Part shown: positions 12,387 through 19,206 of the stretch, in pieces
Layout: every line of letters starts with the position of its first letter
Position numbering within the stretch: position 1 is the first letter of the stretch
Assembly: GCA_947628065.1 (NCBI GenBank)
Contig: CANQYK010000001.1
Span: 7,372 to 71,371, forward strand
Reading direction: 5' to 3'
From: an uncultured Bacilli bacterium
GTDB taxonomy: Bacteria; Bacillota_I; Bacilli_A; RF39; UBA660
Length of the DNA stretch: 64,000 nucleotides
Notes under the pieces: model-generated
Told to the model about the DNA's origin: nothing
Database searches by the model: none
What the model saw: the letters and a program-made list of their open reading frames with translations, nothing else
Position numbers and translations under genes: made by a program

Positions 12387-13151
12387 TTATTCATTATATT
12401 CATTACTTCTAGAATCACTATCTACTATTTTATCTTTTATTCTATATGAATTACCAGTTATTCTTATAATATGCGAATAATGTAGTAATCTATCTAAAAC
12501 AGCACTAGCTAGAGTATTATCACTAAAAACTTCTCCCCATCTTGAAAAGGGCATATTAGTAGTTACTATTGTTGATTTTGTCATATATCTTTTTGCTATC
12601 AATTGAAAGAATAAATTAGATCCTTGATGATCTACCGGTAAGTATCCTATTTCATCAATTATTAAAACTTTATATTGTGCTAGATGTTGAAGTTGTTTAT
12701 CTAATCTATTTTCTTTTTGTGCCTTATTTAATTTTTGCATTAAATTATGACAAGTAATAAAATATACACTATTTCTATGCTTAGCTGCTTCTATTCCTAA
12801 AGCAACAGCTAAGTGTGTTTTTCCTACTCCAGAATTACCTATAAATATTATATTTTCATGTTCATTTATAAAACCTAAATTACTTAATTCTCTTATTTGA
12901 TTTTCACTGACGGATGGTTGAAAGGAAAAATCATAATCATCTAAAGTTTTCCTAAAAGGAAAATTAGCAGCTTTGATGATACCTTCAGCAGCACGTTCAT
13001 CTTTAAAATTAATTTCGCAACCTAATAAATAATTTAAACTATCACTTAAAGGTGGCATCTCTTTGTTATGTTTATGTATATAATCTGGCAGTATTTCTTT
13101 TACTTTTTCTAATTCTAATAAATCCAATTTTTCATTTAATTCTTCTATCAT
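12387..13151 (-). CDS. istB: IS21-family helper ATPase IstB
   Basis: Walker A is GNSGVGKTHLA and Walker B is LIIDEIGY. The 254-aa protein overlaps the end of istA. Confidence 0.9.
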   Translation of the reverse strand: MIEELNEKLDLLELEKVKEILPDYIHKHNKEMPPLSDSLNYLLGCEINFKDERAAEGIIKAANFPFRKTLDDYDFSFQPSVSENQIRELSNLGFINEHENIIFIGNSGVGKTHLAVALGIEAAKHRNSVYFITCHNLMQKLNKAQKENRLDKQLQHLAQYKVLIIDEIGYLPVDHQGSNLFFQLIAKRYMTKSTIVTTNMPFSRWGEVFSDNTLASAVLDRLLHYSHIIRITGNSYRIKDKIVDSDSRSNEYNE

Positions 13152-14388
13152 TTTGATTTTCTCCTTTATCTATATATATTCCATCTAAAGAGTATAAATT
13201 TTTATTAATATATTCCATTAATTCTTTTTCTGTTTTATCATTGAAACTACTATGTTTTAATATATCTATATAATCTTTTTCTTTATAGTTATATTTACTA
13301 TTAGTATTTTTTTCATATGAATGAATCAATTTTGAGTTATAATATAAGTAGATGAATTTATCATCTTCTGATACAGTTATTGATTTTCCTACATACTGTA
13401 TTGGTACAGAATATTTAATTCCTTTATATTTAATCATTGATTCATTAGATACTTTATATATTTTTGACTGATTACAATAAGTTTCTAATAATTCATAGGT
13501 TACTGGAATTAGATATTCTTTTTCTTTTTCGAATAAGACTATTGGTATTTCATTTGTTGCTTGTGATTTTTCTTCATAATTTAAATTATAATTTAAATCT
13601 GATACTATTTTCTTAAGTTCTTTTAAGTCTTTAAATTCGAAATCAAATGCTTTAAGTCTATCCATAATTTTAGCTAAAGTTTCCACTTTTCCTTTGGTTT
13701 TTGGCCTATATGGTCTACAAGTTATTATTTTGAATCCAGCATCTTTTGAAAATTGCAAAGTTTTCGTATTAATTACAACATCTGTGTAACTACTTTTTGT
13801 ATGGTCTACTATTGTTTTCATATTATCAAACAATATTTCTCTTGTTGTTCCCCCGAAATATTTAAATGCTTCGGTTAAGCTTTTAAATAAAGTTATTTGA
13901 GTTTGATCTGTTGTTAACTTTATAAATTTAAATCTTGAATTTCCTAAAACGATTAGAAAAATACTTACTACATATTCATTTCCGTATATATCGTGTAATT
14001 TTAATTTTTCTTTCCAATCAACTTGCGCTTGATATCCTTTTATAGTTTCAAACCTAATTGTTAAATTAGAAATTATTTTTTCTTTTTTAGAAGCTACATA
14101 TTTTCTAACTATTCCATATTTTCCCATATAATCATATTTTTCTTTTAAGAGATAATATATTCCTGTTGCTGGAATATTATTATTTTCTATTTTCTCATCA
14201 ATAATTTGTTTATATGGATCTAATATAGAATGATATTCCCTCTTTTTTCTTTCTCTTTCATATTTTTTTGGGTTTAATCTTCTATCAATTGTTTCCCAAC
14301 AACAATTGAATTGTCTTGCCAAAGCTGATTTATTCACCTTTACTCCTCCTTCTTTTTCTAATAACTTTCTTGTTATTTCTTGTCTCAT
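13132..14388 (-). CDS. istA: IS21-family transposase IstA
   Basis: This 418-aa protein has an N-terminal HTH-like region and an integrase-core-like middle (QVDWKE...). It is followed by an overlapping istB. Confidence 0.85.
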   Translation of the reverse strand: MRQEITRKLLEKEGGVKVNKSALARQFNCCWETIDRRLNPKKYERERKKREYHSILDPYKQIIDEKIENNNIPATGIYYLLKEKYDYMGKYGIVRKYVASKKEKIISNLTIRFETIKGYQAQVDWKEKLKLHDIYGNEYVVSIFLIVLGNSRFKFIKLTTDQTQITLFKSLTEAFKYFGGTTREILFDNMKTIVDHTKSSYTDVVINTKTLQFSKDAGFKIITCRPYRPKTKGKVETLAKIMDRLKAFDFEFKDLKELKKIVSDLNYNLNYEEKSQATNEIPIVLFEKEKEYLIPVTYELLETYCNQSKIYKVSNESMIKYKGIKYSVPIQYVGKSITVSEDDKFIYLYYNSKLIHSYEKNTNSKYNYKEKDYIDILKHSSFNDKTEKELMEYINKNLYSLDGIYIDKGENQNDRRIK

Positions 14389-14725
14389 ACTTTTATCATC
14401 TCCTTCTATTTATGAGATAACAAAAGTATATCATACCCACTAAAAAACTGATAAAAAGTCTCAGTTTTTTACTTTAACATTTTTATCAGTTTCTATTTTA
14501 ACATTTATATCTTTTTTTCAGGGAGTTTATGAAAATTTTTTTCGCGTGCTATTATTTTCCTTATTTCTCCCCACTTTCTTCGCCTTTTTACTTTGATTTC
14601 TCAAAATGGTACTTTTTGATTGATTTCCGGACGTACTTTTTCACCTATTTTTACCTTATTTTTCAACGGTTTACGAAAAACTGTCCGTAGCTAAGCTTGT
14701 TACCTTAATTTAGATAATAATTGCG

Positions 14726-14760
14726 GGGTGCCCGGAAGACGTTGCCTTCCGGGGGCACCT
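14726..14760 (-). terminator. GC-rich hairpin immediately downstream of the 14776..16404 gene, with no clean U-tract
   Basis: GGTGCCCGGAAG-acgttgc-CTTCCGGG(G)GCACC forms a stem of about 12 bp with one bulge. On the sense strand it is followed by GCAATTATTATC rather than a U-run, and it is very GC-rich for this genome. Confidence 0.45.
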
Positions 14761-14775
14761 CTTACGTTAACGACT

Positions 14776-16404
14776 TTAAAGCCCAAACTCAAATGGATCA
14801 TCCACCGCTCCTGTACCTTTTAGCAATTGGATATTAGATACTAGATATACGACTGGGCGGACGCCGAACGTATTGCGCACGAGGTAGCCGTTTTCGACAC
14901 CCCCCGTGTTGCTCACAGCGAACGCACGGTACGAACGGTCGGAGTACGGGGCGATTGTCCATTGATATTTATTATTAACAAAGAGCCAGTCATTATTCTT
15001 ACAATCGGGTATCCCTCCATCACTACTGTACCAGTGATACAAATCTTTTGCTAAACAGGTTACTCTATTTGCTGTTGCTCCTCCACTTGTCGCATATCCA
15101 TAATCGCTAGGGTACATTAATCCTACTTTCCCTGTCCAGTTTGTTTTTCTTGGATGCGCACTACTACTATATACTGTTTCGCTTCTTTCAAACTTATAAT
15201 ATGCTTCTGTTAATACTCCGCTTGATGTACTATTTCCACCCAAGTACCATTTCGCATCTCCTATCATTGCTTGTGCCTCCGGTAACAGTCCTGTTTCTTC
15301 AAAATTACAAGTTGTTGATGCATTACTACTTCCACTTGGACAACTTCCACTTTGTCGATTCCAGTATAAACTTCCTTTTCCTCCTGTTGCATTTGCTTCT
15401 TCATCATATCCGGGATTCAGTATCATCATCAATCTTGAATCGGTCCAATCATTACTTCCGCGATCATCCTCTGATGACCCTGTCCCACTTGGCTTATTAT
15501 CAAATGATATAGTATTATCTGTTCCTACTGGTAATGGATCTTTTCTTATTAATTTAATTCTTTTTTCCCTCTTTCCTTCTCCATCATCTACTGTCTCAAT
15601 TCCAATAATCCTCCATCCTGCTTCTTCATTATTGAATGTTACATAATTATTTGGGTCAGCTCCTATATATCTATAATCTTTTAGTTCTTCTTCACTCCAA
15701 TCACTTTGTTGTGTTCCTCTACTACTTGCATGATTAAACACATACATCTTATTCTCTTTTGCATTTGCATCATCTTTACTATAATTTATATCATAATCTT
15801 GTACATCCTCACTATTGGTATAATTTGCAAGTAACTTTTCTACTGCTGATGTTGATTGCTTGTTACTATATCCTTTTACCAATACTTTCATCTTATATAT
15901 TGTTCCTTGCGCACTATTATCTGCTGTATCACTTAACCACAATCTTAAGGTATAAACTATCTTTTTATCATCTTCACTTGTTCCTAAAGTATCTTCATCC
16001 TTTACTATGAATGTTCCATTTCCAACTTCCTTCATTACTTTGATTCCAGAATCATATCCTTTATCACTTGTTAACTTATATTTTACAAAATTCGTATCTA
16101 ATGTATTATTATCCGTATCTTCTTGGAACGATATCATATAATATGCCGTAATGTCTCCACTATTTGTTATGGTAAAGGTATAAGGCTTACTTTCTAATCC
16201 TTCTTCATCACTTAAAGTACCAGTATTTTCTAAATTAATAGTATCTCCTTCTTCAAAATCTATTTTTAAGGTACCAGATTCGATACTTAAAGTTTTATCA
16301 CCTTTTAATGTTTTCGAAAATAAAGCAAACGTTGTTCCTAGTAATGATAAAACACTAAAACTAACGGATATTACAATAATTGCAATTAACTTTTTCTTAC
16401 TCAT
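14776..16404 (-). CDS. secreted surface protein with a TasA/camelysin-like N-terminal domain and a C-terminal lectin-like (DUF6273/DUF1566-like) domain
   Basis: The signal region LLGTTFALFSKTLKGDKTLSIESGTLKIDF resembles the SipW-type TasA N-terminus (GGGTWAAFND...ASGTLDL). The C-terminal half is paralogous to 60248..64000: DYRYIGADPNNYVTFN, WRIIG, RIKLIR, SRLMMILNPGY, LYWNRQSG, GLMYPSDYGYATSGG, and VRPVVYL followed by GTG..DPF. Confidence 0.7.
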   Translation of the reverse strand: MSKKKLIAIIVISVSFSVLSLLGTTFALFSKTLKGDKTLSIESGTLKIDFEEGDTINLENTGTLSDEEGLESKPYTFTITNSGDITAYYMISFQEDTDNNTLDTNFVKYKLTSDKGYDSGIKVMKEVGNGTFIVKDEDTLGTSEDDKKIVYTLRLWLSDTADNSAQGTIYKMKVLVKGYSNKQSTSAVEKLLANYTNSEDVQDYDINYSKDDANAKENKMYVFNHASSRGTQQSDWSEEELKDYRYIGADPNNYVTFNNEEAGWRIIGIETVDDGEGKREKRIKLIRKDPLPVGTDNTISFDNKPSGTGSSEDDRGSNDWTDSRLMMILNPGYDEEANATGGKGSLYWNRQSGSCPSGSSNASTTCNFEETGLLPEAQAMIGDAKWYLGGNSTSSGVLTEAYYKFERSETVYSSSAHPRKTNWTGKVGLMYPSDYGYATSGGATANRVTCLAKDLYHWYSSDGGIPDCKNNDWLFVNNKYQWTIAPYSDRSYRAFAVSNTGGVENGYLVRNTFGVRPVVYLVSNIQLLKGTGAVDDPFEFGL

Positions 16405-16489
16405 CTTACATCACCTAAAAAAGAATAGAATTAACCTATTCTATCCTTTCTTCCACGCTTAAAAGAATTTAGATAACTATCTAAAGCTA

Positions 16490-16499
16490 CCCCCCCCCC
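16490..16499 (-). repeat. C10 (G10 on the coding strand) homopolymer in the upstream region of 14776..16404
   Basis: I counted ten consecutive C residues, 86 to 95 nt upstream of the start codon at 16404. On the sense strand the tract lies between a -35-like TTTACG and a -10-like GATAGT. Confidence 0.9.
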
Positions 16500-16700
16500 G
16501 TAAACAATTTGTAAACTTTACAACATTTGACATTTTGATCAACTACCTTTCTTTTTTGTAGATTTGGAAATTATTTGATATCACTTTTTCCTTTTTATTT
16601 AAGATAATATTACTACCTTTCCTATATCCATATTACAATACTTTCGTCTATTTTGCAAGATAGAAATATCTTTTTCATTAATGTCGAATGAAAAAAAGAG

Positions 16701-16868
16701 CTAAATCACTCCCATTACGACATTTTCGTTTTGAATTTGTCTATCCTCCTTACTTTCTATTCCATAAAAATTATGACATAAATATAAACTGATTAAGACT
16801 GCCACAATATAAATAATTACCACCCCCAATGCTGTTTTTGCGATTTCCATTACTTTTTCTTTTACCAT
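16701..16868 (-). CDS. small (55 aa) membrane protein divergent from lexA; candidate SOS-induced cell-division inhibitor
   Basis: My translation is MVKEKVMEIAKTALGVVIIYIVAVLISLYLCHNFYGIESKEDRQIQNENVVMGVI. A GGAGG RBS lies 7 nt upstream. The ORF has a consensus promoter with a LexA box in the spacer. It falls below the length cutoff of the ORF track. Confidence 0.6.
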   Translation of the reverse strand: MVKEKVMEIAKTALGVVIIYIVAVLISLYLCHNFYGIESKEDRQIQNENVVMGVI

Positions 16869-16895
16869 ATTACATTCCTCCTTCTTGATAATACT

Positions 16896-16924
16896 ATTAT
16901 ATTATCGAACAGATGTTTTGTCAA
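16896..16924 (-). promoter_or_regulatory. sigma-A-type promoter of the small ORF, with a LexA box in its spacer
   Basis: The minus-strand sequence reads TTGACA (16919..16924), a 17-nt spacer, then TATAAT (16896..16901). The spacer contains AAAACATCTGTTCG. Confidence 0.6.
16906..16919. promoter_or_regulatory. LexA (Cheo/SOS) box 1
   Basis: CGAACAGATGTTTT matches the Firmicute consensus CGAACRNRYGTTYC at 13 of 14 positions. Confidence 0.65.
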
Positions 16925-16943
16925 TCGTATTTTAACTATTTTT

Positions 16944-16957
16944 CGAATTTTTGTTTG
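16944..16957. promoter_or_regulatory. weaker LexA-box-like site overlapping the lexA -35
   Basis: CGAATTTTTGTTTG overlaps the putative lexA promoter, which reads TTGACA (16955..16960), a 17-nt spacer, then TAAACT. Confidence 0.4.
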
Positions 16958-17006
16958 ACAATTGACAAGCATCATGGTAAACTTAAGAAAAGAAAGGATG
17001 AGAGTT

Positions 17007-17624
17007 ATGGAAAAACTTACGGAACGTCAATATGACATTTTACAAGTTATTAAAAAATTAAAAGCAAAGAAAGGATATCCACCTACAGTAAGAGAAATTG
17101 GAGATGAAGCACATCTTAGTTCTCCTGCTACGATCCACTTTCACATCAAACAACTAGTAAAAAAAGGATACATAAAAAAAGAAGATGGAAACAATCGTAC
17201 GATTGAAATCCTTGTTCCTAACGAATTTGAAGATGTGAAAGAAGATATTGTAAAGGTTCCTCTTCTTGGAAAAGTAACAGCAGGAACACCAATTGAAGCA
17301 ATTGAACGACCAAATGAAACGTTTAGTCTACCAATTGAACTGGTTAATAACAAAAAAGAAGTCTTTACTTTAACAGTCAGTGGAGAATCGATGATTAATG
17401 TTGGTATTTATGATGGTGATATTTTAATTGTTGAGAGAACAAGTACTGCAAGAAATGGGGAAACTGTTGTTGCGATGAACAAAGACAACGAAGCAACGGT
17501 TAAAACCTTTTATAAAGAAAATGGATACTTCCGCTTACAACCAGAAAACGATACCATGGAACCAATTATTTTGGATCAAGTTACCATTCTTGGTAAAGTA
17601 ATTGGACTTTACCGAAAATTATAA
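17007..17624 (+). CDS. lexA: LexA repressor
   Basis: The protein has LTERQYDILQVIKKLKAKKGYPPTVREIG (winged HTH), a VAAG-type cleavage region (KVTAGTPIEA), and the S24 peptidase motifs GESM and VKTF. The start is placed at ATG 17007, giving 205 aa. Confidence 0.9.
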   Translation: MEKLTERQYDILQVIKKLKAKKGYPPTVREIGDEAHLSSPATIHFHIKQLVKKGYIKKEDGNNRTIEILVPNEFEDVKEDIVKVPLLGKVTAGTPIEAIERPNETFSLPIELVNNKKEVFTLTVSGESMINVGIYDGDILIVERTSTARNGETVVAMNKDNEATVKTFYKENGYFRLQPENDTMEPIILDQVTILGKVIGLYRKL

Positions 17625-17631
17625 AAGAGCC

Positions 17632-19206
17632 TTACGACTCTTTTTTTTGTAGGACTACATTCATCTTTTGATCAAGAAAAATTCTTTTGTCCATCTCTTT
17701 TAAATTCTTACTAATTTTAGGACGAAATGCCATATGGGATAGAATATCTTTTTCTAAATCAATACCTGGTGCAATTTCGATTAGTTCAATTCCATCATCT
17801 ACAAGACCGAACACTGCACGCTCTGTAACATATAAGATTTCTTGTTTGTTTTTTCTTGCTTGTTTGGCAGAGAAAGTTATTTGTTCTACTGTATCAACAA
17901 ACTTACATTTCTTTCCTTCTTGAAGAATGGATAAAGCCCCATCTTTTACTAAGAATTTCTCATCTACTGTTGTAAAGGTTCCAATAAAGACAATCTTTTT
18001 GGTTGACTGCGTAATATTAATAAAACCACCTGGTCCTGTTACTCTTGTTCTAAATTTAGATACATTAACATTCCCCTCTTTATCTACTTCTGCAAGACCT
18101 AAAACTGCCATATTAAGGCATCCTCCATTATAAGCATCAAATTGAGAAGCAGTATCAATCACAGAATCCGGGTTAATACTAGCACCAAAAACAATACCAC
18201 CAATTGGTACTCCCCCTGTCGGACCAGACTCTACCGATAAATATAAGTCATCACTGCATCCTTCTTCTGCTGCGACTGCCGCTACAGAATCTGGCATTCC
18301 AACACCAAGGTTTACAACATCCCCCTTTTTTAGTTCAAAGAAAGCACGCCTTCCACAAACCTTTCTCTCATCAAGAGGCCTAGGTGGAATCTTTTCAAGT
18401 TCGATTCTTTTATCCCCTGTTACTTCAGGACGATAAAAAGGAATATTATATTCACCCAATGAAGCATCTGGTTCTGCTACTAAAACATAATCAACGTACG
18501 ATGAATGAATTAATACATCCCGTGCTCGAATACTTTTTCTTGGTACAATTTTTTCAACTTGGGCAATTACAATACCACCAGAATTATGAGCTGCAATTGC
18601 CATATTATATTGTTCCCCAATTACTCCTTCATGTTCCAAAGATAAATTCCCATCCTCATCCGCATACGTTGCTTTAATAACAGCAACTTGAATGGGAAAA
18701 CTCTTATATAAAAGTTGTTCTTTTCCATCAATGGTAAGAAGCGATACAATGTCTTCTTCCTCTTTCGTGACTTCATTCGCCCTACATCCACCATATCTAG
18801 GATCTGCAAAAGTATTAAGACCAATGTGTGTTAAAACTCCAATCTCTCCCCCTGCAATGGCACGATATAAATGATTGATAACACCAAGAGGAACCGCAAA
18901 GGCTTTTATTTTATTTTCACCAATTTTATTTCCAAAAATTTTTCCCATTCCAAGATGCGCACATATAGCGTATGATACCAACCCATCTTTCGCAAGCATA
19001 TTCATTCCAACATCATCATCCGTTAAATTACCTGGACTAATCCCACATGTTACTTTTAAATCCCTCGGATGCCCGGTTTCTAAAAAAGAATTCATAATGC
19101 CTTTTAAAATGGCTTCACAAGATCCACTTCCTCCACTTCCAGAGATTGCTACCATATCTTGATCATGAATTAAATTTCTTAAATCTTTTTCTGTAATAAT
19201 TTTCAT
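17632..19206 (-). CDS. family I acyl-CoA:carboxylate CoA-transferase (Pct/YdiF-like)
   Basis: Over the N-terminal roughly 150 aa the sequence is collinear with my recollection of propionate CoA-transferase (DMVAISGSGGSG..., LETGHPRDL, GLNTFADPRYGG). The protein is 524 aa. Confidence 0.7.
   Translation of the reverse strand: MKIITEKDLRNLIHDQDMVAISGSGGSGSCEAILKGIMNSFLETGHPRDLKVTCGISPGNLTDDDVGMNMLAKDGLVSYAICAHLGMGKIFGNKIGENKIKAFAVPLGVINHLYRAIAGGEIGVLTHIGLNTFADPRYGGCRANEVTKEEEDIVSLLTIDGKEQLLYKSFPIQVAVIKATYADEDGNLSLEHEGVIGEQYNMAIAAHNSGGIVIAQVEKIVPRKSIRARDVLIHSSYVDYVLVAEPDASLGEYNIPFYRPEVTGDKRIELEKIPPRPLDERKVCGRRAFFELKKGDVVNLGVGMPDSVAAVAAEEGCSDDLYLSVESGPTGGVPIGGIVFGASINPDSVIDTASQFDAYNGGCLNMAVLGLAEVDKEGNVNVSKFRTRVTGPGGFINITQSTKKIVFIGTFTTVDEKFLVKDGALSILQEGKKCKFVDTVEQITFSAKQARKNKQEILYVTERAVFGLVDDGIELIEIAPGIDLEKDILSHMAFRPKISKNLKEMDKRIFLDQKMNVVLQKKES

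Follow-up and report, generated by a model that had tools for sequence, protein, structure and literature searches.

The closest described parallel to the locus analyzed here is the pil1 system of Streptococcus gallolyticus, in which the number of GCAGA repeats in the leader sets the reading frame of a leader peptide (Danne et al. 2014, PMC3894217). A short peptide, whose stop codon lies 39 bp before a stem-loop terminator, goes together with low expression, whereas out-of-frame repeat numbers yield longer peptides that end within or after the hairpin, and high expression; the mechanism was proved by mutants of the ATG, the stop codon, and the terminator (PMC3894217). Our literature search, aimed at homopolymer or poly-G repeats within leader peptides or upstream open reading frames (uORFs) that precede a terminator, returned S. 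gallolyticus as the only true analogue. Here we describe a candidate system of related logic in a stretch of 64,000 nucleotides (nt) from an uncultured Bacilli bacterium (GenBank assembly GCA_947628065.1, contig CANQYK010000001.1), called the window below and used for all coordinates. A run of ten G residues (G10) precedes the gene of a secreted protein in this stretch, and comparison of its sequence with that of its relatives suggests that the tract is probably the slippage-prone element of a phase-variable transcription attenuator built around a leader open reading frame (ORF).

Several other surface-protein switches are relevant to this locus. Homopolymers in promoter spacers control the vlp genes of Mycoplasma hyorhinis (poly-A), opc and porA of Neisseria meningitidis (poly-C/G), and the fim genes of Bordetella, and uspA1 of Moraxella catarrhalis has a poly-G tract in its 5′ leader. 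In cwpV of Clostridioides difficile, a Firmicute surface-protein gene, phase variation depends on whether an intrinsic terminator in the leader forms or not. A report on Helicobacter pylori describes a G-repeat of tlpB that is targeted by the small RNA RepG (PMC8295292). Intragenic contingency loci with poly-G/C tracts are known from Campylobacter jejuni, Neisseria, and Haemophilus (PMC11955535).

A recurrent leader cassette

The tract lies on the coding (minus) strand at window positions 16490-16499, corresponding to C10 on the plus strand, 86 to 95 nt 5′ of the ATG (16404) of the ORF 14776..16404, which is where a sequence-only reading of the window had placed it. That reading had also called the run conspicuous for an AT-rich genome, and the host assembly, a draft of 1.55 Mb with 29.9% GC in 135 contigs, bears this out, with 29 G/C runs of at least 10 nt observed compared to 0.015 expected by chance. 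The run-length spectrum (29 runs of 6 nt, 1 of 7, 3 of 8, 1 of 9, 27 of 10, and 2 of 11) drops to near zero at length 7 and then spikes. A comparison of the flanks of all 34 runs of at least 7 nt places 31 of them in one conserved cassette, and 26 of these 31 tracts are exactly G10.

The anatomy of the cassette was drawn from an alignment of 28 copies of this genome. From 5′ to 3′, it consists of a predicted sigma-A-type promoter, a leader of about 75 nt, a Shine-Dalgarno (SD) sequence and ATG, a uORF containing a GTTTAC motif and the G tract, a pyrimidine stretch, a hairpin followed by at least five T residues, and finally the SD sequence and ATG of the gene itself, which lie within about 10 to 20 nt of the T-run across copies. 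The genes that follow encode proteins of 350 to 970 amino acids with a SipW-type signal peptide. The promoter, cTTGAAA-17-TAATAT/TATTAT/TAAGAT, marks the exact start of the homology between copies, and the tract is located about 125 nt downstream of it, inside an ORF; in the window, transcription is predicted to start near 16623. The features of the window copy are listed in the order of the predicted transcript.

16653..16658, minus strand: -35 element TTGCAA of the predicted cassette promoter, aligning with a conserved cTTGAAA/TTGTCA block at the 5′ edge of the cassette homology
16630..16635, minus strand: -10 element TAATAT, 17 nt past the -35 element, aligning with conserved ATTGTAATAT, TATTAT, or TAAGAT in about 22 of the 28 aligned copies
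16552..16629, minus strand: conserved 5′ leader segment (TATAGGAAAG..TATCAAATAATTTCCAAAT..), from the paralogue alignment, shortened in copies C20, C111, C12, and C116
16545..16551, minus strand: SD sequence GAAAGGT of the uORF, at least 90% conserved in the alignment and contributing as well to the 5′ strand of the P1 helix (16536-16563)
16477..16533, minus strand: leader uORF as assembled with G10, reading MSNVVKFTNCLRGGGSFR and ending at the stop codon TAG (16479-16477)
16490..16499, minus strand: G10 homopolymer, the proposed slippage site within the uORF
16451..16482, minus strand: pyrimidine-rich segment X (..ATCTAAATTCTTTT..), which can pair with the SD region of the uORF as the 3′ strand of helix P1
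16417..16453, minus strand: terminator-like hairpin HP2, with core arms 16448-16438 and 16431-16421, loop 16437-16432, and a run of six T residues (T6) at 16422-16417
16431..16433, minus strand: TAA stop codon closing the long frame (G9 or G12); it falls within the loop of the terminator-like hairpin and precedes the main ATG by 27 nt
16411..16416, minus strand: SD sequence AGGTGA of the main gene
14776..16404, minus strand: putatively regulated gene, encoding a secreted protein of 542 amino acids with a SipW/TasA-type signal peptide (..GTTFALFS..)

The cassette is a feature of the genus. The motif GTTTAC-N10-13-G8+ is found in 28 of 36 genomes of the same genus and in none of 24 genomes of other genera. 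Among named records, real cassettes occur in bins of uncultured Bacilli or "Tenericutes," in Candidatus Onthousia faecavium, and in Clostridium sp. CAG:451. A broad scan of genome contigs for GTTTAC..G8 was set aside, as it mostly matched unrelated GC-rich genomes, only the AT-rich matches being real cassettes. We also rejected an assembly artefact, be it gap filling or a dark-cycle poly-G spike at length 10, because the tracts sit in conserved unique flanks, lengths of 8, 9, and 11 exist as well, and the motif is present in 28 independently assembled congeners and on 59 metagenome contigs.

Reading frames through the tract

The uORF has a different end for each register of the tract. As assembled with G10, the window copy stops at +10 from the tract, and with G11 or G8 a TAG follows directly (+0), while G9 or G12 gives 33 codons up to a TAA at +56, located in the hairpin loop (the G9 peptide is MSNVVKFTNCLRGGVALDSYLNSFKRGRKDRIG). 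The same layout holds for the 62 cassettes of the frame analysis, of which this genome contributed 27 and 12 genomes of the same genus 35. In 61 of them, exactly one frame is open from the tract to the hairpin. The stop codon of this long frame falls in the 5′ arm of the hairpin in 23 cassettes, in the loop in 27, in the 3′ arm in 7, and downstream in 5, whereas the other two frames end 0 to 22 nt past the tract, more than 15 nt short of the hairpin.

The start of the uORF is also conserved, with both SD sequence and ATG kept in the copies of this genome and in congeners, and GAAAGGT located 9 to 11 nt before the ATG across copies. The distance from the ATG to the tract is 28, 34, or 37 nt, all equal to 1 modulo 3, in every G10 copy for which a start codon was found. 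A frame-shifting insertion or deletion in the 5′ part of the uORF (distances of 33, 33, and 36 nt) is present in three of the four non-G10 copies and in no G10 copy (Fisher exact p of about 0.001), and in two of these three the majority register is restored (C12, 33+8; C128, 36+11). Where sequence is inserted between tract and hairpin, its length is divisible by three, with 39 nt added in C95 and 24 nt in L163 compared to L132. The ATG distances, the compensating indels, and the in-frame insertions together point to a real reading-frame constraint, which fits a translated uORF and not a promoter spacer. A placement of the tract within the main coding region, as part of an N-terminal extension, was rejected, since all three frames stop before the main ATG.

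A promoter spacer is what the sequence-only reading had proposed, with the tract separating a TTTACG from a GATAGT hexamer and its length tuning promoter strength. Switches of this type are an established mechanism, both hexamers are indeed present in the window copy (TTTACG at 16504-16499 and GATAGT at 16481-16476), and TTTACG-17-GATAG(T/C) recurs among the paralogues of subfamily 1. The spacer had been given as 18 nt, so that the loss of one G would bring it to the optimal 17 nt; the actual count is 17 nt (16498-16482), and the argument therefore fails on its own terms, the spacing being optimal already at G10 and the predicted logic reversed. Furthermore, about half of subfamily 1 has GATAGC, which lacks the T at -7, and no -35/-10 pair flanks the tract in subfamily 2 or in the congeners, despite their homologous cassette. 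In C12 (G8) and C128 (AT+G11), the spacers would measure 15 and 20 nt, but the uORF register is kept. A transcript from such a promoter would have its start some 50 nt upstream of the hairpin and T-run, without a means to pass them, and in DNA this rich in A and T, matches to 8 of the 12 hexamer positions arise often. Conservation of the hexamers does not extend to the whole family, whereas a better promoter is conserved 85 to 138 nt upstream of the tract. Control by -35/-10 spacing is, in our view, very improbable for this locus, although the underlying idea of a slippage switch for a surface-protein gene is probably right, given the variation of tract lengths between 8 and 11.

Just 5′ of the tract, the motif GTTTAC(A/C)AA..GT(T/A)(T/A)(A/C)C (window 16500-16520, minus strand) is conserved as nucleotides in all cassette copies and forms small inverted repeats. 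The motif might influence slippage or pausing, or serve as a binding site. Subfamily 1 reads it as K-F-T-N-S-L and subfamily 2, in another frame, as S-L-P-N-V-T, and this agrees with an explanation in which the tract is mainly a structural or recognition element of the RNA, pairing in cis with C- or U-rich leader segments or bound in trans by a C/U-rich small RNA, and the leader is a signal-responsive attenuator for which tract length is modulatory or incidental. For many congeners, folding predicts pairing of the tract with a C-rich spacer that separates the SD sequence of the uORF from its ATG, for example CCCCCUCAUG with CAUGGGGGGG in L138, and the RepG system is a precedent for a variable G-repeat in an mRNA leader as a small-RNA target (PMC8295292). 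However, the copies of this genome have no C-rich partner, and pairing leaves the three-frame stops, the frame-preserving indels, and the compensated registers unexplained. The leader has no match in Rfam 15 at E values up to 1 (window 14000-19000, both strands), and no candidate small RNA was identified, no systematic search having been made. We consider this explanation quite unlikely.

Hairpin and leader helix

The key partner of the tract is the hairpin that the sequence-only reading had mentioned in passing. Its arms AGAATAG/CTATTCT and the T6 run (16417-16448) are present between the tract and the AGGTGA of the gene (16416-16411). With the A-rich flank pairing with the T-run, the extended stem of HP2 reaches 15 bp and a folding energy of -14.1 kcal/mol (z = -3.9). 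A hairpin with a run of at least five T residues is found in all 62 analyzed cassettes, and it is absent from 6 of the 69 extracted copies. The 56 unique hairpin segments have 32 distinct basal stems, all of them complementary and each directly before at least five T residues, and at several stem levels the pairs alternate between AT, TA, GC, and CG. Their mean folding energy is -8.3 kcal/mol, compared to -4.4 kcal/mol in shuffles. These pair counts by stem level replaced an analysis with MAFFT and RNAalifold, which gave no consensus for the hairpins because the MAFFT alignment is not structural. In the window copy, only 12 nt separate the end of the T-run from the main ATG, too few to hold a promoter after the hairpin in this subfamily, so that no transcript of the gene can avoid the hairpin.

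A second helix, P1, can form between the SD region of the uORF and the pyrimidine-rich segment. It is weak in the window copy (RNAduplex energy of -12.6 kcal/mol, z = -2.0) and absent from the minimum free energy (MFE) fold, and the mean duplex energy of the family is -14.2 kcal/mol, compared to -9.0 kcal/mol for shuffles. The P1 pairs covary across species, as seen for AAGAAAGTAG with CTACTTTCTT, GAAAGAAGGTA with TACCTTCTTT, and GGAAGAGGTGATTA with TAATCACTTC (also in MFE folds), and in subfamily 2 of this genome the helix covers both the SD sequence and the AUG. P1 may act as a lock that limits uORF translation to a cotranscriptional window, or it may reinforce the OFF state.

A helix that sequesters the SD sequence indicates a design in which RNA folding is linked to translation, which would also suit a mode of action on translation or mRNA stability. 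The ribosome would then open the structure, reinitiate, or protect the mRNA, and the hairpin would not be an efficient terminator. The stop codon of the long frame lies only 27 nt before the main ATG and the hairpin is A/U-rich and weak by scan criteria, both in agreement with such an action. On the other hand, the main SD sequence (16416-16411) is outside the hairpin in the predicted folds, and the T-run directly after the stem in the 62 analyzed copies is the signature of an intrinsic terminator. The experimental precedent likewise works through termination (PMC3894217). An effect of the uORF frame on translation or stability alone is thus, to our mind, unlikely.

Tract length variation and registers

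The sequence-only reading had proposed looking for tract-length heterogeneity among related strains, and in the family as a whole such heterogeneity is present across paralogues, across species, and between near-identical loci of different gut samples, with lengths from 8 to 11, a mode of 9 in congeners, and a mode of 10 in this genome. The 59 cassettes found in human-gut metagenome contigs comprise 20 with G8, 23 with G9, 15 with G10, and 1 with G11. The contigs L207 (G9) and L217 (G10) represent the same locus in different gut samples and differ by six substitutions and no indel in 600 flanking nt. L186 (G9, with the uORF stop in the hairpin) pairs with L201 (G8, with the stop at +5). A comparable pair consists of L185 and L208. 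Since these near-identical loci carry long- and short-frame tracts, natural pairs of predicted ON and OFF alleles exist. A loss of mismatch repair as the source of the instability was rejected, as both this genome and the genus at large encode MutS and MutL.

The length differences also bear on a nonheritable explanation, in which RNA polymerase slips on the G run and provides each cell with a fixed small fraction of frame-shifted transcripts, giving a low constitutive level. Transcriptional slippage on long homopolymers is known, and the uniformity of the assembly, with exactly G10 in 26 of the 31 cassette tracts, is compatible with it. The differences between near-identical loci and samples are, however, at the DNA level, so that DNA slippage is real in this family, although both processes could coexist. 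Polymerase slippage as the whole explanation appears exceedingly improbable.

In this assembly, 28 of the 31 cassettes share one short register and 2 have the other; judged by tract length, no cassette is in the long register. Such an all-OFF consensus would be expected if each cell expresses few members of the family. In the cassette C39:7817, the short-frame stop TAG is changed to CAG, and the G10 register runs to a stop codon in the 5′ arm of the hairpin. This cassette is predicted to be the only one of the assembly that is ON at G10.

Loci of the same species were sought through an exact-product look-up of the neighboring LexA, which gave no match, and through a species-specific cassette pattern, which gave no metagenome contig; no further assembly of the species emerged from the homologue and cassette-pattern searches. 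Outside this genome, the nearest homologues of the 542-amino-acid protein (P0004-P0007, about 80% identity) are encoded in other contexts without a G tract. In one ENA metagenome contig with a homologue of about 80% identity (L176:5880-6010), only the 3′ part of the cassette is left between tandem paralogues (ggaaaggataggatagactagttctattcttttt, then ATG); the uORF and the G tract are missing, and the hairpin sits where the terminator of the upstream gene would be expected.

Proposed switching mechanism

The attenuator that we propose would work as follows. Transcription would start at the conserved sigma-A promoter TTGCAA-17-TAATAT (16658-16630) and produce a leader of about 220 nt, in which the SD sequence and ATG (16551-16531) open a short uORF that runs through the G tract, followed by the intrinsic-terminator-like hairpin with its T6 run (16453-16417). 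The length of the tract would set the frame of the uORF. With G10, where the stop codon lies 10 nt past the tract, or with G11 or G8, where translation would stop at once, the ribosome would leave about 30 to 40 nt before the hairpin; the hairpin would form, most transcripts would end there, and the gene would be OFF or low. With G9 or G12, the ribosome would reach the TAA in the loop, occupy the 5′ arm, and block termination, so that RNA polymerase would enter the gene. Replication slippage at the tract would make this switching heritable and reversible. The direction of the switch, with the long frame as the ON state, is taken from the analogy to pil1 of S. gallolyticus; on the same analogy, the window copy (G10) is predicted to be OFF and a G9 or G12 copy ON.

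Several observations weigh against this scheme. The core of HP2 is A/U-rich and has two G-C pairs, below the rule of at least three in the terminator scan used here (in a host of 30% GC), and the gap of 11 nt between the SD sequence and the ATG of the uORF is rather long in the window copy. One open frame over 40 to 50 AT-rich nt arises in about half of shuffles, the product over nine sequence clusters being about 1e-3, which makes the chance test of this feature only modestly significant. The near-uniform short register at G10 could itself be a selected, functional state. The long frame is seen in 9 of the 62 cassettes of the species genomes and in 15 of 40 copies (about one third) in metagenome contigs, so that the long state is not generally depleted. 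Transcription outruns translation in Bacillus subtilis, and ribosome-mediated antitermination is therefore not guaranteed in Bacilli.

A further point against the scheme is that the cassettes of subfamily 2 (C7:225, C38:11369, C47:2135, C112:1166, and C125:1907) have a conserved near-consensus promoter, TTGACA-17-TAAAAT, between the hairpin and the gene, and their long uORF frame continues 47 to 152 nt beyond the hairpin. These genes may thus have their own promoter downstream of the hairpin, in which case the switch would not be their sole control. A sister leader type in congeners (L023, L025, L059, L075, L118, L132, L134, L135, and others) has the same GTTTAC..G tract, pyrimidine stretch, and terminator, but its 5′ half (ggggtaaattaattcgtcatttttctaaaac) shows no obvious SD sequence and ATG, so that the uORF model may not extend to this type.

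Because the same cassette precedes about 31 genes, combinatorial surface variation would be possible. Extending the proposal to the whole genome, we suggest, more tentatively and as something we would not yet bet on, a "phasome" of a type absent from the literature searched, with about 30 independent poly-G leader-ORF attenuators per genome, kept throughout a genus of uncultured Bacilli from human and animal guts, each gating a secreted lectin-like protein and some of these proteins also rewritten by a diversity-generating retroelement. The system could have more than two states, as the three registers could place the terminating ribosome at three positions relative to P1 and the terminator, giving OFF, leaky, and ON; G10 would be the default all-OFF state, with rare cells each showing a different protein.

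If the attenuator model proves true, abundant uncultured gut Bacilli with small genomes would randomize their surface by a stochastic on/off choice among about 30 secreted binding proteins, with retroelement-driven hypervariation of some protein tips as a possible second layer. The phase switch made of leader peptide and terminator would no longer be a curiosity of one Streptococcus species but a portable, genus-wide cassette. Per-locus tract lengths in shotgun data would furthermore report the predicted ON/OFF state, which would make the dynamics of gut surface antigens measurable without culture.

Variant cassettes

The leader of the cassette C9:765 is identical to the window leader (16405-16630) over the 100 nt compared around the tract, and the first 45 residues of the downstream ORF are identical too. 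The copy differs upstream of the -10 element, which points to a recent duplication or gene conversion of the 5′ cassette, and it is truncated by the contig end. In C95:917, the tract is split into G10, a 33-nt insert (tacttacccagagtagtaattctcggacagtct), and G6, followed by the usual TAGCTTT; the added length is 39 nt, and therefore the long frame is kept. The first part of this insert is similar to what follows the tract in the C8 cassettes, suggesting recombination between cassettes at the tract.

Two tandem G10 cassettes, C8:31801 and C8:33128, precede paralogous proteins of 354 and 361 amino acids, each with one N-terminal hydrophobic helix. Both are without the hairpin and T-run, and a different read-out would therefore be needed. 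A further G10 tract (C3:29988-29997) is found in a cassette-like variant leader before an NDP-hexose 2,3-dehydratase gene (Pfam ID PF03559, E = 7e-121), whose product is a cytoplasmic sugar-biosynthesis enzyme and not a secreted protein. This leader has the SD sequence GAAGGAG and a GTG-started uORF through the tract, and no T-run hairpin was found in it. The C3 tract suggests that surface-glycan synthesis may be phase variable too.

Putatively regulated protein and neighboring genes

The 542-amino-acid protein has more than 4,000 homologues but no match in Pfam, NCBIfam, or PDB sequence searches. Its C-terminal region (14851-14960) yields many ungapped paralogous matches at 75 to 81% identity. 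Four SipW-type signal peptidase genes are present in the genome.

Upstream of the cassette, a gene for a single-helix membrane protein of 55 amino acids (MVKEKVMEIAKTALGVVIIYIVAVLISLYL.., 16701-16868, minus strand) has a perfect TTGACA-17-TATAAT promoter (window 16896-16924, minus strand) and is divergent from lexA (16962-17624, plus strand). The arrangement recalls lexA-yneA of B. subtilis, where the small protein is an inhibitor of cell division in the SOS response. Directly downstream of the surface-protein gene lies an IS21-family element (window 12387-14388, minus strand) with the genes istA (rve integrase core and Mu-transposase C domain) and istB (IstB_IS21, E = 5e-77).

Comparison with known systems

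Promoter-spacer switches share with the cassette a homopolymer upstream of a surface-protein gene and slipped-strand mispairing, and in Mycoplasma also the organization as a multigene family. Their tract lies between the -35 and -10 elements, whereas in the cassette the candidate hexamers around the tract are not conserved and the tract is in an ORF about 125 nt past the promoter. The intragenic contingency loci resemble the cassette in having G/C homopolymers of 8 to 11 nt at many loci of a small AT-rich genome of a host-associated bacterium, with ON and OFF set by frame. There, the tract is in the structural gene and truncates the protein, whereas the cassette has its tract in a separate uORF and leaves the structural gene intact in every state.

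The uspA1 and tlpB genes also have a variable G-repeat in a transcribed leader that controls a surface or chemotaxis protein. They act by transcript level or small-RNA pairing, without a logic of uORF and terminator, whereas the frame layout of the cassette points to a ribosome-dependent mechanism. cwpV shares with the proposed attenuator the terminator-based control in the leader; its switch, in contrast, is a site-specific DNA inversion and requires no leader peptide.

The pil1 system (and pil3) has most in its layout that recurs in the cassette, namely, a promoter (a predicted one in the cassette), a leader ORF with SD sequence and ATG and a slippage-prone repeat, a terminator stem-loop before the structural gene, and a frame that is set by the repeat. 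The short peptides end at a similar distance from the terminator, 39 bp in pil1 and about 30 to 40 nt in the cassette, the long ones end within or after the hairpin in both, and in both the product is a surface structure of a gut Firmicute. The repeats differ, being about 22 GCAGA pentamers in pil1 and a G homopolymer of 8 to 11 nt in the cassette. Long peptides arise from one register in three in the cassette and from out-of-frame additions or deletions in S. gallolyticus. Unlike pil1, the cassette, known here from its sequence, occurs at about 31 scattered loci per genome and throughout a genus, and it has an additional covarying helix that sequesters the SD sequence of the uORF; it precedes SipW-type secreted lectin-like proteins and, with a variant leader, at least one sugar-biosynthesis gene, whereas pil1 precedes sortase pili. 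What appears to be new in comparison with S. gallolyticus is therefore the homopolymer in place of pentanucleotides, the single long register in three as the predicted ON state, the SD-locking helix, and the portable form of the switch at about 31 loci genus-wide.

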